The notes beneath the pieces were generated by a model. That model had not been told where the DNA came from. It was given only the letters and a program-made list of their open reading frames with translations, and did not search any database. A program made the translations under genes and the position numbers. Source: Escherichia coli (GTDB lineage: Bacteria > Pseudomonadota > Gammaproteobacteria > Enterobacterales > Enterobacteriaceae). Taken from it: a stretch of DNA of 64,000 bases. The stretch is taken from NCBI RefSeq assembly GCF_003334355.1, contig NZ_QOWP01000002.1, one strand, 5' to 3'. Positions 49,834-56,371 of the stretch are shown piece after piece; the stretch's first letter is position 1; each line of letters starts with the position of its first letter.

Positions 49834-50691
49834 ATGAAATACATTGGAGCGCACGTTAGTGCTGCTGGCGGTCTGGCAAATGCCGCAATTCGCGCCGCCG
49901 AAATCGACGCAACCGCGTTTGCCTTGTTCACCAAAAACCAACGTCAGTGGCGTGCCGCACCGCTCACGACGCAAACCATCGATGAATTCAAAGCGGCCTG
50001 TGAAAAATATCACTACACATCGGCGCAAATTCTTCCCCACGACAGCTATCTGATTAACCTCGGACATCCGGTCACTGAAGCTCTGGAAAAATCGCGCGAT
50101 GCCTTTATAGATGAAATGCAGCGTTGCGAACAACTGGGGCTTTCTTTGCTCAACTTCCACCCTGGCAGCCATCTGATGCAGATTTCAGAAGAGGATTGCC
50201 TTGCGCGTATTGCCGAATCCATCAACATTGCGCTGGATAAAACTCAAGGTGTAACAGCGGTGATTGAAAACACCGCCGGTCAGGGCAGTAACTTAGGGTT
50301 TAAATTCGAACATCTCGCGGCGATTATCGACGGCGTGGAAGATAAATCCCGTGTCGGCGTCTGCATTGATACCTGCCATGCTTTCGCTGCCGGGTATGAT
50401 TTGCGTACTCCAGCCGAATGCGAGAAAACGTTCGCGGATTTTGCCCGTATTGTTGGCTTTAAGTATCTGCGCGGGATGCACCTTAACGATGCGAAAAGCA
50501 CCTTTGGCAGCCGCGTTGACCGCCATCATAGCCTCGGTGAAGGCAATATCGGTCATGATGCGTTCCGCTGGATCATGCAGGACGACCGTTTCGACGGAAT
50601 TCCGCTGATCCTTGAAACCATCAACCCGGATATCTGGGCAGAAGAGATCGCCTGGCTGAAAGCGCAACAAACTGAAAAAGCGGTAGCCTGA
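49834..50691 (+). CDS. nfo: Nfo, endonuclease IV (285 aa)
   Basis: N-terminus [17 protein letters not shown] and length match. Confidence 0.95.
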
Positions 50692-50693
50692 AG

Positions 50694-51782
50694 ATGAATA
50701 ACCGGGAAAAGGAGATCCTTGCAATTTTACGGCGTAACCCGCTGATTCAGCAGAACGAAATTGCGGACATGCTGCAAATCAGTCGTTCGCGCGTTGCGGC
50801 GCATATTATGGATTTAATGCGCAAAGGGCGGATTAAAGGCAAAGGTTACATTCTCACCGAGCAGGAATACTGCGTAGTGGTGGGGACAATCAATATGGAT
50901 ATTCGCGGGATGGCGGATATCCGTTACCCGCAAGCGGCTTCTCATCCCGGTACAATTCATTGCTCGGCGGGCGGCGTGGGACGCAACATCGACCACAATC
51001 TGGCGCTGTTAGGCCGTGACGTCCATTTGCTTTCAGTGATTGGCGATGACTTTTATGGCGAAATGCTCCTGGAAGAAACGCGCCGTGCCGGCGTGAATGT
51101 CTCCGGCTGCGTTCGTTTGCATGGTCAAAGCACATCGACGTATCTGGCAATTGCCAATCGAGACGATCAAACCGTGCTGGCGATTAACGATACCCATCTG
51201 CTGGAACAGTTGACACCGCAACTACTGAACGGGTCGCGCGATTTACTTCGTCATGCGGGCGTGGTACTGGCTGATTGCAACCTGACAGCCGAGGCGCTGG
51301 AATGGGTCTTTACCCTCGCTGATGAAATCCCGGTGTTTGTCGATACCGTTTCAGAATTCAAAGCGGGCAAAATCAAACACTGGCTGGCGCATATTCACAC
51401 CCTGAAACCCACTTTACCGGAGCTGGAAATTTTATGGGGACAGGCGATCACCAGCGATGCTGACCGTAATGCCGCAGTGAATGCATTGCATCAGCAAGGT
51501 GTTCAGCAACTGTTTGTTTATTTGCCCGATGAGTCAGTTTATTGCAGCGAAAAGGATGGAGAACAATTTTTGCTGACCGCGCCAGCGCATACGACAGTAG
51601 ACAGTTTTGGTGCTGACGATGGTTTTATGGCGGGCCTGGTATATAGCTTTCTTGAAGGATACAGTTTCCGCGACAGCGCCCGTTTTGCGGTAGCCTGCGC
51701 GGCAATTTCGCGCGCCAGCGGCAGCTTAAACAACCCTACCCTGTCTGCCGATAACGCGCTTTCATTAGTGCCAATGGTGTAA
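50694..51782 (+). CDS. yeiI: YeiI, PfkB-family sugar/nucleoside kinase with N-terminal HTH domain (362 aa)
   Basis: N-terminal winged-helix-like segment (EILAILRRNPLIQQNEIADMLQISRSRVAAHI) followed by a ribokinase-type core. Its translation aligns with PsuK in this same window. Confidence 0.9.
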   Translation: MNNREKEILAILRRNPLIQQNEIADMLQISRSRVAAHIMDLMRKGRIKGKGYILTEQEYCVVVGTINMDIRGMADIRYPQAASHPGTIHCSAGGVGRNIDHNLALLGRDVHLLSVIGDDFYGEMLLEETRRAGVNVSGCVRLHGQSTSTYLAIANRDDQTVLAINDTHLLEQLTPQLLNGSRDLLRHAGVVLADCNLTAEALEWVFTLADEIPVFVDTVSEFKAGKIKHWLAHIHTLKPTLPELEILWGQAITSDADRNAAVNALHQQGVQQLFVYLPDESVYCSEKDGEQFLLTAPAHTTVDSFGADDGFMAGLVYSFLEGYSFRDSARFAVACAAISRASGSLNNPTLSADNALSLVPMV

Positions 51783-51837
51783 CAATGTTGCCGGATTCGA
51801 CGCTTGACCGCATCTTATCCGGCTCATAAATTGCGCA

Positions 51838-53088
51838 CTACGCTAAACCAATAAAGAATCCTGCAATAGTAGCACTCATCAGGTTAGAAAGTGTCGCCGC
51901 CGCCAGCGCGCGTAAACCAAGTTGGGCGATTTCCGGCGCACGGTGTGGCGCAACCGCAGAAAACGCCCCCACCACCACCCCGATAGAACCAAAGTTAGCG
52001 AAACCGCACAACGCGAAAGAAATAATCGCCACGGTTTTAGCATCCAGAGTGCCACCCGTTTGCAGATATGGCGAGAAATTGAGATAAGCGACAAATTCAT
52101 TGATCGCCAGCTTCTGCCCAATCAAACTCCCGGCAAGATTTGCATCACTCCAGTCAACCCCCATCACCCACGCCAATGGGGCCAACAGGTAACCTAAAAT
52201 GGACTCCAGCGAGGCATGTGCAAAACCAAACCAGCCGCCAACGCCGCCGATAATACCATTAATTAACGCAATGATGGCGACAAATGCCATAACAACTGTC
52301 GCTACACCGGCGGCGATTTTCAGCCCGGTCATTGCCCCTGTCGCAGCGGCTTCAATAATGCTTTTTGGCGGTGTTTCGGTGAAAGAGAGGTTATTAAAGG
52401 AAACCTGCGAAGATTCCGTAGCCGGGCTTAACAGGCGGGCAAACAAGATCCCGCCTGGGATCGCCATTAACGATGCCGCCAGCAAATATTCCACAGGTAC
52501 GCCCAGGGCGGCGTAACCAATCATTGTCGAACCAGCAATCGAGGCCATGCCACTACAAATCGCTGTAAATAATTCATTGCGATTCAGACGATCGATAAAG
52601 GGTTTGACGATCGCCGGAATTTCGTTTTGCCCGAGGAAAATGGTGGTGACCGCGACGAATGACTCAATCTTGCTGATATTTAATGCTTTCTGGAATATAC
52701 CGCCGAGAATGCGAATTAAAATCCCCATCACACCGATGTAGTAGAGAATACTCACCAGTGCAGTGACGAAGATAATTGCCGGTAATACCCTGAAACCAAA
52801 GATAAATCCTGCGCCATCAAACAGCGTGTCCATTTTCGGCCCGACCAGCGAACCGAAGATAAATGCGCTACCCGCGTCGCTGTACGCCATCACTTTATGC
52901 ACGCCAAAAGCGACTTTTTCAGCGACCCAACGCCCTGGCGGTAACCAAAGCATAATCCCGCCAATCACGACCTGTAACACTAACGCCGCGCCAACGGTAC
53001 GCAGGCTGATCTTCTTCTTGTTTACTGACAGCAAAAACGCAATCGTCAGCAATACCACCATTCCCAGAACACTTCTCATGACATCCAT
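51838..53088 (-). CDS. nupX: NupX (YeiJ), CNT-family nucleoside permease (416 aa)
   Basis: Near-identical paralogue of PsuT in this window. Confidence 0.9.
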   Translation of the reverse strand: MDVMRSVLGMVVLLTIAFLLSVNKKKISLRTVGAALVLQVVIGGIMLWLPPGRWVAEKVAFGVHKVMAYSDAGSAFIFGSLVGPKMDTLFDGAGFIFGFRVLPAIIFVTALVSILYYIGVMGILIRILGGIFQKALNISKIESFVAVTTIFLGQNEIPAIVKPFIDRLNRNELFTAICSGMASIAGSTMIGYAALGVPVEYLLAASLMAIPGGILFARLLSPATESSQVSFNNLSFTETPPKSIIEAAATGAMTGLKIAAGVATVVMAFVAIIALINGIIGGVGGWFGFAHASLESILGYLLAPLAWVMGVDWSDANLAGSLIGQKLAINEFVAYLNFSPYLQTGGTLDAKTVAIISFALCGFANFGSIGVVVGAFSAVAPHRAPEIAQLGLRALAAATLSNLMSATIAGFFIGLA

Positions 53089-53187
53089 AGTTATTATCTC
53101 TTCATGTCATATTGGGCGACGGCTTTCTGCCCATCAGAAATAGCCGGGCTTGGATCTTGCGATACTGACCCGGCTTGTTATCAACAC

Positions 53188-54129
53188 TTAATGGGTTTTG
53201 ATGTAGCCGCGCACGCACTCTTCGACTAAGCCCCAGAACCAGTCGGTATCAATAGTGATGCCGACTTTGGTATTAGCGGGCTTGCCAAGAACGCCCAGCT
53301 CGTCGCAGACGGTACGCCCATAGCAAGGGCCACTGTTGACGTCCACTTCGACGTACATCTCCTGGGTTTTAATGCCATCAGGGTTAATCAGATAACCGAT
53401 GCAGGTGGCGTCGTGCACCGGGCCGCCAGCCAGGCCGTAGTTTTCGAACTGCGTTTTGAGAGTGAAGTTCATGATGTCGCTGAACAGCTCTCCGGCAGGG
53501 CCGCCTGCCCTTTCCATCCGTGCAATCACGTCCGGGGTGCAAACGGTCTGGTTGGTGAGATCGAGGCCCATCATCACTAATGGAACGCCGGAGGTGAACA
53601 CCACGCGGGCTGCTTCCGGATCAGCAAAGATGTTGAACTCGGCAGATGGCGTGAAGTTGCCTGTACCGTAAGCGCCGCCCATTAGCACAATTTCACGGAT
53701 TTTGGGCAGGATCGCGGGTTGCATACGCATTGCCACCGCGATATTTGAAAGCGGACCAACCGGCACCAGAGTGATATCGCCATCGCTTGCCATCAGGGTA
53801 TCAATGATGTATTTCACCGCGTGGGTACTTTCTGCCTGGCGGGTCAGCGGCTCGAATACCGGGCCATCCAGTCCGGTTTCACCGTGAATATTATCGGCAA
53901 CGATTTGTTTACGCATAATGGGTTGCGGCATCCCCGCATAAACCGGAACATTAATCTCCAGTTTCTGGCAAACATTCAGGCCATTAATTAATGTTTTATC
54001 AAGCGTCTGATTACCCGCTACAATAGTGATGCCTAATAAATCTATTGCCGGATGTTTCGCTGCCATCATCATTGCAATAGCATCATCATGACCCGGATCA
54101 CAATCCAGAATAATTTTTCTCTTTTCCAT
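53188..54129 (-). CDS. rihB: RihB (YeiK), pyrimidine-specific ribonucleoside hydrolase (313 aa)
   Basis: Nucleoside hydrolase N-terminal DCDPGHDD motif. Confidence 0.9.
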
Positions 54130-54297
54130 TGTTTATTTCCTCTGTTTCCAGTTGCGTTATTTTTTCTACAGCAAAGAAAATTCGACCGGGCCGATGATTG
54201 AATCTTACCAACCGCGTACGTATGCTAAATATGAGAAATCTCATAGCGGATAAACATCGTGAAAGAAATCCACAATAATGATCTTAAGCAGCAATTG

Positions 54298-54957
54298 ATG
54301 AGTGAATCCGCGTTTAAGGATTGCTTTTTAACGGATGTTTCAGCCGATACGCGGCTGTTTCATTTTTTAGCGCGTGACTACATTGTGCAGGAAGGGCAAC
54401 AGCCGTCCTGGCTGTTTTATCTGACGCGAGGCCGCGCCAGGCTTTACGCCACGCTTGCTAATGGTCGCGTGTCGCTGATCGATTTCTTTGCCGCCCCCTG
54501 TTTTATTGGTGAGATTGAGTTAATCGACAAAGACCATGAACCGCGTGCGGTGCAGGCTATTGAAGAGTGTTGGTGCCTTGCGCTCTCTATGAAACATTAC
54601 CGCCCGCTGTTATTAAACGACACGCTATTTTTACGAAAACTCTGCGTCACCTTAAGTCATAAAAATTATCGTAATATTGTTTCTTTAACTCAGAATCAAT
54701 CATTTCCGTTAGTTAATCGCCTGGCAGCTTTTATATTACTCTCGCAGGAAGGTGATCTTTATCACGAAAAGTATACGCAAGCGGCAGAGTATTTAGGCGT
54801 TTCTTATCGACATCTTTTATATGTTCTCGCGCAATTCATTCACGACGGTTTATTAACTAAAAGCAAGAAAGGGTATCTCATTAAAAACAGAAAGCAGTTG
54901 TCAGGACTGGCGCTGGAGATGGACCCGGAGAATAAATTCTCCGGGATGATGCAGTAA
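54298..54957 (+). CDS. yeiL: YeiL, CRP/FNR-family transcriptional regulator (219 aa)
   Basis: Start trimmed to MSESAFKD to match the K-12 length. C-terminal HTH region. The ORF also allows an earlier ATG at 54259. Confidence 0.8.
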
Positions 54958-54977
54958 AAATTATTTGCAATAGCGCG

Positions 54978-55020
54978 ATTGCCGGATGCAACGCTTAATA
55001 CGTTTTATCCGGTCTACAAA
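54978..55020. repeat. REP-like element downstream of yeiL
   Basis: gccggatgcaacgcttaatacgttttatccggtctacaaa. Confidence 0.5.
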
Positions 55021-55027
55021 TCGAGCA

Positions 55028-56278
55028 TTACGCCAGACCAATAAAGAACCCGGCAATAGTCGCACTCATCAGGTTGGAAAGCGTTGCTGCTGCCAGCGCC
55101 CGTAAACCAAGCTGGGCGATTTCTGGAGCACGTTTTGGCGAAATAGCCGAAAATGCGCCAACGACAACACCGATAGAACCAAAGTTAGCAAAACCACAAA
55201 GCGCAAAGGAGATAATCGCAATGGTTTTCACTTCCAGCGTGCCGCCCGTTTGCAGGTATGGGGAGAAACTCAGGTAAGCGACGAATTCGTTAATCGCCAG
55301 TTTCTGCCCAATCAGGCTACCCGCAAGATTGGCATCACTCCAGTCCACACCCATGATCCACGCCAGCGGTGCCAGCACATAGCCAAAAATACTTTCCAGA
55401 GAGGCATTGGCGAAACCAAACCAGCCACCAATTCCGCCGATAATGCCGTTGATCAGCGCAATAATTGCGACAAACGCCATTACCACCGTCGCTACACCAG
55501 CGGCGATTTTCAGCCCGGTCATCGCACCGCTCGCCGCCGCTTCGATAAAGCTTTTTGGCGGCGTTTCGCTGAACGACAGATTTTCAAATGTGACCTGCGA
55601 AGGCTCGGTGGCCGGGCTAAGAATACGTGCAAACAAAATACCACCTGGGATCGCCATCAGCGATGCCGCTAACAGGTAGTCAATTGGTACGCCCATTCCG
55701 GCATAACCAATCATCATCGAACCAGCAATGGACGCCATCCCGCTACAAATTGCGGTAAACAACTCGTTGCGATTCATGCGATCGATAAACGGTTTAACGA
55801 TCGCCGGGATCTCATTTTGCCCGAGGAAAATAGTTGTGACTGCGACAAAAGATTCGATTTTGCTGATGTTAAGAGCTTTCTGGAAAATGCTGCCAAGGAT
55901 GCGAATCAGCAGCCCCATCACGCCAATGTAGTACAGCAGACTGATGAGCGCAGTAACGAAAATAATCGCCGGAAGTACGCGAAAGGCGAAGATAAAACCC
56001 GCACCGTCAAACAGGACATCCATTTTCGGCCCAACCAGCGAACCAAAAATGAAGGCGCTACCGGCATCACTGTAAGACATCACTTTATGAACGCCTAATG
56101 CCGCCTGTTCTACTGCCCATTTTCCCGGTGGGAAGTAGAGCATGATGCCACCAATAGCGATTTGCAGCAGCAGTGCGGCTCCAACCGTACGCAAACTGAT
56201 GCTCTTTTTATTCACTGACAACAGAAATGCTATTGCCAGTAACACCACCATCCCCACAACACTTCTCATTATGTCCAT
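55028..56278 (-). CDS. psuT: PsuT (YeiM), putative pseudouridine/nucleoside transporter of the CNT family (416 aa)
   Basis: Paralogue of NupX in this window. First gene upstream of psuG-psuK on the same strand. Confidence 0.9.
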   Translation of the reverse strand: MDIMRSVVGMVVLLAIAFLLSVNKKSISLRTVGAALLLQIAIGGIMLYFPPGKWAVEQAALGVHKVMSYSDAGSAFIFGSLVGPKMDVLFDGAGFIFAFRVLPAIIFVTALISLLYYIGVMGLLIRILGSIFQKALNISKIESFVAVTTIFLGQNEIPAIVKPFIDRMNRNELFTAICSGMASIAGSMMIGYAGMGVPIDYLLAASLMAIPGGILFARILSPATEPSQVTFENLSFSETPPKSFIEAAASGAMTGLKIAAGVATVVMAFVAIIALINGIIGGIGGWFGFANASLESIFGYVLAPLAWIMGVDWSDANLAGSLIGQKLAINEFVAYLSFSPYLQTGGTLEVKTIAIISFALCGFANFGSIGVVVGAFSAISPKRAPEIAQLGLRALAAATLSNLMSATIAGFFIGLA

Positions 56279-56371
56279 AATGATTTTCCCTTCATGCCAG
56301 TAAACCCGGCGTCAGCGCCAGGTTTTGGTATGTTTGATGAGTACGGGCGACGGCTTTCTGCCCGTCAGAAA

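Follow-up and report, generated by a model that had tools for sequence, protein, structure and literature searches.

What do the permease genes nupX and psuT share ahead of their start codons, and why has it been kept? The question is raised by a 28-nucleotide (nt) element that precedes both genes in the yei locus of Escherichia coli, which holds the operons rihB-nupX and psuK-psuG-psuT. We analyzed this element in a 64-kb stretch of contig NZ_QOWP01000002.1 (hereafter the window), from a strain near but not identical to K-12, and in the leaders of related operons. As the relevant genes all lie on the (-) strand, the sense element is the reverse complement of the window letters. Sequence comparison indicates that Enterobacteriaceae have an old untranslated leader between a gene for a nucleoside-catabolic enzyme (psuG or rihB) and one for a NupC-family permease (psuT or nupX), and that the 28-mer repeat is the module of this leader that has been preserved best. 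At its core is a hairpin, called H1 here, which, judging from its pattern of substitutions, is very probably a sense-strand RNA hairpin under purifying selection.

A two-copy element retained between diverged paralogues

A pattern search of the window gave exactly two matches, at 53114-53141 and 56345-56372, while shuffled sequences predict 0. An earlier note, made from the letters of the window, had reported both copies; both are real and the first was placed correctly, but the second, given as 56344-56371, was off by one. The sense sequence of the 28-mer is AUUUCUGAYGGGCAGAAAGCCGUCGCCC, the transcribed form being AUUUCUGA-YGGGC-AGAAAGCCGUC-GCCCR, and the two copies agree at 27/28 positions, their sole difference being A/G on the + strand and U/C in the transcript. 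The upstream position and the shared orientation relative to nupX and psuT hold as described in that note, its "immediately" amounting to 25 nt between the 28-mer and the ATG of nupX and to 66 nt for psuT.

We asked whether such an identity could be expected between the two genes. Neutral sites between nupX and psuT are near saturation, the identity being 78.5% over the coding sequence (CDS), 51% at third codon positions, and 48% at four-fold sites. At least 27/28 matches would arise with a probability of 3e-8 if positions agreed at the four-fold-site rate, and of 0.01 if they agreed at the rate of the whole CDS; the coding windows that reach 27/28 form a single cluster (8/1224). Retention inside otherwise diverged intergenic DNA, as the note had proposed, is thus seen as 27/28 against 48% at four-fold sites. 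Alignment of the two intergenic regions, set beforehand as the test that could refute this retention, revealed no block of uniform identity. In the global alignment of both blocks, homology starts at the 5' edge of the element, upstream of which lie the unrelated 3' ends of rihB and psuG; past the element comes a 41-nt indel, and homology then runs from the ribosome-binding region through the CDS.

We also observed that the duplicated block ends in palindromes resembling repetitive extragenic palindromes (REPs), directly after the nupX and psuT stops (51779-51824 and 54950-55014). These give weak Rfam naRNA4 matches, and the duplication unit extends from H1 to the REP.

In a BLAST search, a 51-nt query around the nupX copy matched 5,425 of the 5,426 complete E. 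coli genomes. The matches fall at the nupX and psuT loci in every case; a genome has a median of 2 such places and never more than 3. The 28-mer is a two-copy element and not a dispersed repeat; the search for further copies that the note had suggested found none beyond the two loci in most E. coli genomes (median 2). A covariance model of H1 likewise gave 2 matches in the 64-kb window and none elsewhere in it.

H1 is a covarying hairpin in the leaders of both operons

To compare leaders, sequences were fetched by protein homology or by the CDS start, never by the element itself. A protein-based scan of species-representative genomes gave one more E. coli nupX locus, E. albertii, two Citrobacter and Superficieibacter, together with more distant homologues; look-ups of PsuT/NupX relatives gave Buttiauxella, Kluyvera, Klebsiella michiganensis, K. 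spallanzanii, Enterobacter, Leclercia, and Entomohabitans; and a pattern built on the initial 31 nt of the CDS retrieved 139 further leader copies from metagenomes, 52 of them distinct. The 46 distinct leaders of the alignment come from about 10 named enterobacterial genera and from metagenome lineages, and belong to rihB-nupX and psuK-psuG-psuT operons (contexts yeiL<>rihB-nupX and psuK-psuG-psuT).

Results showed that H1 is found in 16/16 genome-derived leaders, across about 10 genera and both operon contexts, and in 34 of the 35 distinct metagenome transporter leaders, the 35th having a remodelled hairpin. In a neighbour-joining tree of the transporters, the rihB-linked (nupX) clade is separate from the psuG-linked (psuT) clade, so the psuT/nupX duplication is older than the divergence of these genera. 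The comparison indicates that H1 is a feature of the leader that was present before this duplication and that its base pairing is one kept by selection in both lineages. Farther away, the H1 covariance model had no leader match among 70-odd NupC-family loci at about 50% identity (Vibrio, Pasteurellaceae, Halomonas, Burkholderia, and enterobacterial nupC). We also noticed that the psuT-type genes of Serratia and Klebsiella sp. BIGb0407 (72-73% identity; L005, L006, and L007, about 2380-2470) have another leader, in which a long hairpin, CCUGAAAGGUGG...CACCUUUCAGG, replaces H1.

Common to the leaders is a G+C stem, YGGGC/GCCCR, of 5-8 bp with a loop of exactly 11 nt. Its five core pairs are formed in 223/230 cells (97%) of an alignment of 46 distinct 41-mers (alignment A3). 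Per pair, the counts are A-U 12, G-C 10, and G.U 5 at 10-32; C-G 30, U-A 8, and U.G 4 at 11-31; G-C 43, A-U 1, and G.U 1 at 12-30; G-C 44 and U-A 1 at 14-28; and C-G 44 and U.G 2 at 15-27. Compensatory changes appear at four pairs (A-U<->G-C, C-G<->U-A, G-C<->A-U, and G-C<->U-A). The covariation score exceeds that of 500/500 column shuffles, the 16-sequence set agrees, and the true register is 90.6% paired compared with 33-55% in registers slid by 1-3 columns. The single difference between the two copies of the window is itself compensatory, the closing pair being U-A in nupX and C-G in psuT; the U.G intermediate is found in E. albertii and in many common E. coli psuT alleles.

The strand on which H1 acts can be read from its mismatches. 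Among transition-type non-Watson-Crick cells, 11/12 are G.U or U.G in the sense RNA, the exception being an A.C in L164. As G.U wobbles pair only in the sense RNA and would be A.C on the other strand or in DNA, this pattern favors an RNA that is transcribed together with the genes over a DNA site. The note's suggestion of a functional RNA or DNA element is hence supported, and on the RNA side; among a processing site, an attenuator, and a binding site, the note itself had made no choice.

H1 is the minimum-free-energy fold in 14/16 sequences, including the two copies of the window (-8.3 kcal/mol for nupX in its 41-nt context, -11.1 kcal/mol for psuT). The nupX leaders of Enterobacter and Leclercia have a fully paired loop (GAUC-CCG-GGUU, AAUC-CCG-GAUU, and GACC-CCG-GGUU), which turns H1 into a perfect 12-bp hairpin of -21 to -23 kcal/mol with its own covariation and extra G.U pairs. 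These versions show that what all leaders require is a stable hairpin. Moreover, in the metagenome lineage L160/L207, the two outer pairs are lost while the inner three are kept, with a G-C to U-A change and new internal pairs.

The gggc...gccc stem pointed out by the note is the sole helix in the element that comparative data back. The span of 28 nt needs adjusting: the conserved unit is a hairpin of 21-23 nt, whose 3' closing base in the nupX copy, 53113, falls just outside the 28-mer, and AUUUCUGA, the 5' part, is kept only in Escherichia and Citrobacter, where the Citrobacter flank reads AUUUCU or AUUUUC. Two other helices were tried and rejected, namely GAYGG/CCGUC, which RNAfold prefers for the isolated 28-mer and which does no better than shuffles, and the sub-hairpin GGC-AGAAA-GCC, which is lost in Citrobacter. 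Within the rihB CDS, at about 53277-53297 (-) and 209 nt upstream of the nupX ATG, there is a look-alike, UGGGC-N11-GCCCG, which K-12 and the E. coli locus L001 also have; it probably reflects chance plus coding constraint.

H1 is the constant part of a changing leader

Features of the locus are collected in Table 1. The psuT leader has a fixed order: psuG stop, spacer, H1, a C/A-rich linker with AUAUCAGACAUACCAAAA, a second hairpin (H2), Shine-Dalgarno (SD) sequence, and ATG. The spacer between the psuG stop and H1 measures 7-10 nt in 23/23 distinct psuT leaders (7-8 nt with TAA, 9-10 nt with TGA), and the rihB stop is 14 to about 60 nt from H1 in nupX leaders. H2 has the form CCUGGCG...CGCCGGG followed by 3-4 U, and is G+C-rich and terminator-like. 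It is present in psuT leaders and in the nupX leader of K. spallanzanii, which has the full layout, and it is deleted from most nupX leaders; linker and H2 were apparently lost there by deletion between CUGGC repeats. In the metagenome lineage L105, H2 is replaced by an unrelated 11-bp hairpin without a U-tract. In most nupX leaders, an extra hairpin upstream of H1 (hpX) takes over, and it is non-homologous between genera. H1 is thus the constant part, while hpX, H2, and linker are replaced, deleted, or diverged.

Several further observations were made on these leaders. Between E. coli strains (window, K-12, and L001), hpX differs by changes on both arms. Between H1 and H2, the long leaders of both paralogues conserve a single-stranded, C/A-rich motif, AUAUCAGACAUACCAAAA (56326-56343; L086, L008, L154, and L163), which could be a translational enhancer or a site for a small RNA (sRNA), Hfq, or Rho. 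Within E. coli, the nupX leader varies (L001, 2436-2500; L096, L137, L151, L161, and L192): a 12-nt indel lies between H1 and SD, so that 24 or 36 nt separate H1 from the ATG; the H1 region has two common haplotypes, UUUCUGA/AGAAAG and UUUAUGA/AGAGAG; and in rare alleles the stem is broken. In addition, a 6-bp hairpin, CAUUAU-GGAY-AUAAUG, is predicted around the psuT start codon and an in-frame AUG at codon 4 (56263-56283 (-); alignment A2, columns 95-110); psuT-type genes conserve it, and in E. coli nupX it is weaker.

Table 1. Positions of genes and leader features in the window
Feature	Position	Strand	Description
nupX	51838-53088	(-)	NupC-family permease CDS, downstream of H1 copy 1; ATG 53086-53088
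nupX SD region	53097..53103	(-)	GAAGAGA; conserved with the psuT copy
H1, nupX copy	53113..53133	(-)	UGGGC-AGAAAGCCGUC-GCCCA; 5-bp stem, 11-nt loop
5' flank, nupX copy	53134..53141	(-)	AUUUCUGA; single-stranded linker between hpX and H1, within the 28-mer
hpX	53142..53175	(-)	Extra hairpin between rihB stop and H1, predicted from folds
rihB	53188-54129	(-)	Stop codon 53188-53190
yeiL	Between the rihB-nupX and psuKGT operons	(+)	CRP/FNR-family protein
psuT	55028-56278	(-)	NupC-family permease CDS, downstream of H1 copy 2
psuT SD	56287-56292	(-)	
H2	56302..56325	(-)	AAACCUGGCG-CUGA-CGCCGGGUUU; hairpin directly before the psuT SD
Linker	56326..56343	(-)	UACUCAUCAAACAUACCA; C/A-rich, single-stranded, between H1 and H2
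H1, psuT copy	56344..56364	(-)	CGGGC-AGAAAGCCGUC-GCCCG, plus outer A-U pair 56365/56343
5' flank, psuT copy	56365..56372	(-)	AUUUCUGA; base 56372 is the final A of the psuG TAA
psuG	56372-57310	(-)	TAA stop 56372-56374
psuK	57298-58239	(-)	

A candidate processing or stability hairpin

What could a hairpin kept in this position do? By analogy with known intercistronic hairpins, we tentatively propose, as the best reading of the data, that H1 is an intercistronic mRNA hairpin and determines the level of permease expression by way of processing or stability. Folding independently, it would serve as a barrier in cis on the polycistronic mRNA. In nearly all leaders, H1 is predicted to be paired with a second hairpin, downstream H2 in psuT and upstream hpX in nupX, and the two would bracket a short A/U- or C/A-rich single-stranded linker suited to endonucleolytic cleavage of the RNase E type. 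After cleavage, the hairpins would shield the new 3' and 5' ends, and the lifetime of the permease segment, hence its yield, would be uncoupled from that of the enzyme segment. We infer the layout of two hairpins plus linker from predicted folds.

This proposal asks for a stable, conserved hairpin on the sense strand of an untranslated intercistronic gap, and H1 is such a hairpin. H1 is neither a terminator nor geometrically tied to the ribosome-binding site. No U-tract follows it in any of the 46 leaders, the sequences there being AAUAUG, GUACUC, UAACGA, and similar; the interval between H1 and the ATG ranges over 24-67 nt across leaders, so no fixed geometry with the ribosome-binding site exists. 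A promoter and terminator scan found no gene-strand site at H1 or H2, and reading the leaders revealed no conserved promoter-like sequence before H1.

Other observations weigh against a processing or stability role. Rare E. coli nupX alleles (L151, L161, and L192) break the H1 stem, and in E. hormaechei, H1 stands alone, hpX being absent and no partner hairpin being present. Most versions of H1 have moderate stability (-8 to -12 kcal/mol), which is weak for an exonuclease block. The loop positions G2, G6, G9, and U10 are conserved in most lineages and the loop length is constant, neither of which a plain barrier needs. Moreover, Term-seq tables show no 3' end in either leader, which weighs little as the operons are poorly expressed in lab media, and Cappable-seq and SMRT-Cappable-seq data sets of transcription start sites have no entry for the region, with the same limit of poor expression in lab media.

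Alternative explanations

The conserved loop leads to a possible but rather unlikely alternative, in which H1, perhaps together with linker and H2, is a recognition element for an RNA-binding protein, an sRNA, or a small ligand, switching permease translation or elongation by nucleoside status. A fixed 11-nt loop with nearly invariant G2, G6, G9, U10 and stem CGGGC/GCCCG would be expected of such an element, the more so as neighbouring hairpins evolve freely, the C/A-rich linker motif is conserved in both paralogues, and the two-hairpin architecture is conserved over the whole psuT leader. However, loop identity can be dispensed with in the nupX leaders of Enterobacter and Leclercia, where a paired stem capped by a CCG triloop has replaced the loop; H1 persists without linker or H2 in most nupX leaders; and the distance to the ribosome-binding site is not constant. 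No regulator gene is a neighbour of both operon types in all species, Rfam has no match, and the Hfq interactome has no entry (one RIL-seq data set, nitrogen starvation). A bolder version is improbable: H1, linker, and H2 would together form a new cis-regulatory leader RNA of pseudouridine and pyrimidine-nucleoside permease genes in Enterobacteriaceae, read by a dedicated protein, an sRNA, or a nucleoside-derived ligand and coupling synthesis to nucleoside availability, with the psuG-terminating ribosome taking part through the 7-10-nt spacing. That spacing also bears on a role at the level of transcription, as a pause hairpin or as part of an attenuator with the terminator-like H2 or with Rho loading in the C-rich, G-poor linker. 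Given known ribosome geometry, a position 7-10 nt past a stop codon would be just outside a terminating ribosome, and H1 has this position in all 23 distinct psuT leaders; its size (5-6 bp stem, large loop) resembles hairpin-dependent pause signals, and H2 is G+C-rich with 3-4 U after it. We nevertheless regard this role as unlikely, considering that H1 lacks a U-tract and the terminator scan is blank at both hairpins, that most nupX leaders keep H1 but neither H2 nor linker, that the H2 substitute of L105 has no U-tract, and that there is no conserved antiterminator pairing, alternative helices failing the covariation test. Nor was a boxB/boxA-like antitermination signal retained as a candidate, there being no boxA consensus, and a tRNA-arm mimic gave no match.

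The part of the 28-mer outside H1 suggested a switch, the 5' UUUCU tract acting as an anti-Shine-Dalgarno sequence or as a switch arm that pairs with the ribosome-binding site or with AGAAA of the loop (stem UUUCUG/CAGAAA). When the full leaders of both E. coli copies are folded, UUUCU does pair with the SD region; UUUCUG is also perfectly complementary to CAGAAA in E. coli, and a ribosome stopped at the psuG stop would cover the tract. Yet the tract is absent outside Escherichia and Citrobacter, the UUUAUGA and AGAGAG forms found in about half of the sampled E. coli nupX leaders weaken both pairings without compensation, and UUUCUG/CAGAAA is paired in 58% of cells, barely above slid registers. 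As a general mechanism, this is largely refuted and would at best be lineage-specific; we consider it very unlikely. Even fainter is the case for a DNA operator, an inverted repeat CGGGC-N11-GCCCG bound by a dimeric transcription factor such as the CRP/FNR-family YeiL, whose gene sits between the two operons. The sequence is indeed an inverted repeat in which symmetric half-site changes would mimic covariation. But the 11/12 G.U mismatches are asymmetric as DNA half-sites, the extended Enterobacter-clade helix adds more G.U pairs, and the 16 bp between half-site centres, about 1.5 helical turns, are an atypical spacing for a dimeric helix-turn-helix protein. The site is also internal to an operon and follows a coding gene, the scan gave no promoter-like match close to it, and H1 is kept in species that have psuKGT but no adjacent yeiL. 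Just as little credence goes to the absence of any function, the identity being due to a recent short gene conversion between the E. coli leaders or to chance ancestral survival. The E. coli nupX loop AGAAAGCCGUC and its 5' flank are nearer to E. coli psuT than to the nupX leaders of other genera (AGUAAGCGGUC and similar), and concerted evolution within Escherichia may inflate the 27/28 identity. Still, the hairpin occurs in both paralogues across about 10 genera with compensatory changes, and the closing pair of E. coli nupX, U-A, matches that of Buttiauxella nupX rather than that of psuT, which is awkward for a single conversion tract; the flanking CDS has no converted tract. Gene conversion as the sole cause of the identity was rejected on account of this cross-genus conservation, which holds regardless of any concerted evolution within Escherichia.

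Coding explanations were rejected too. A short peptide, MGRKPSPNMT, can be read in the nupX leader, while its psuT counterpart has no start codon; an antisense (+) open reading frame ending at 53143 exists in one copy only; and a recoding stimulator with an extended frame does not fit H1-to-ATG distances of 52, 54, 60, 61, and 64-67 nt, which are not multiples of three apart, nor a stop that is TAA or TGA by lineage.

Literature and significance

Searches of the literature with new and old gene names found no description of the nupX or psuT leaders. A genomic systematic evolution of ligands by exponential enrichment (SELEX) study of sigma-S RNA polymerase has a peak inside psuG, about 220 bp upstream of the stop, at about window position 56590 (PMC5493296). 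It hints at an internal promoter for psuT and is too distant and too coarse to place a start site at H1. In a study of the sRNA svsR, psuT and psuG appear only as down-regulated genes.

The operons psuKGT and rihB-nupX are the E. coli salvage routes for pseudouridine and pyrimidine nucleosides. Currently, psuT is a target in pseudouridine bioproduction strains (PMC13090712, PMC10552469). That both permease leaders have retained a hairpin from a time before the enterobacterial genera diverged points toward posttranscriptional control of permease dosage within these operons, and H1 offers a concrete 21-nt target for mutagenesis. H1 is small, narrow in distribution, and probably of a familiar class; it provides a useful annotation and a testable lead.

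Comparison with known element classes

We compared H1 with the classes of element that stand in such leaders. The sole overlap in a search of Rfam with positions 50000-60000 of the window at E<=10 was isrJ, whose 20.1 bits (E=4.8) fall short of its gathering score of 37. The same search on five orthologous loci had no match in any leader, so the isrJ overlap is due to chance.

Dispersed repeats of the REP or bacterial interspersed mosaic element type occur in many copies, and H1 does not. DNA operator palindromes have half-sites about one helical turn apart near a promoter, an arrangement that H1 lacks. With intrinsic terminators and attenuators, H1 shares a G+C-rich hairpin in a leader and has a neighbour, H2, with a short U run; unlike them, it never carries a U-tract, and the terminator scan was negative. 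Like riboswitches and other Rfam leader RNAs, H1 precedes a transporter gene and combines a covarying stem with unpaired bases that are conserved in most lineages. However, at 21 nt, H1 is too small for known aptamers, it matches no Rfam family, and a core kept in all members is missing, as the Enterobacter and Leclercia nupX loop is fully closed with a CCG triloop.

Hairpins at the 5' end of the ompA type are closer. There, a 5'-terminal stem-loop in the 5' untranslated region protects the mRNA from RNase E. Similarly, nupX H1 is the last hairpin before the ribosome-binding region and follows an A/U-rich linker where cleavage could give an adjacent 5' end. Unlike the ompA type, no conserved promoter stands upstream of H1, and in psuT leaders it is H2, not H1, that is nearest to the CDS.

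Known intercistronic stabiliser or processing hairpins include the REP between malE and malF and the processing region of the pap operon. Like these, H1 is a conserved, self-folding hairpin between cistrons that need unlike expression, here soluble enzymes and a membrane permease, and it is flanked by an A/U- or C/A-rich single-stranded stretch and a second hairpin. It differs from REP hairpins in having two copies per genome, in being shorter and weaker, and in its fixed 11-nt loop with conserved bases. In conclusion, H1 is best filed as an undescribed, narrowly distributed motif within a known kind of cis-acting mRNA element.

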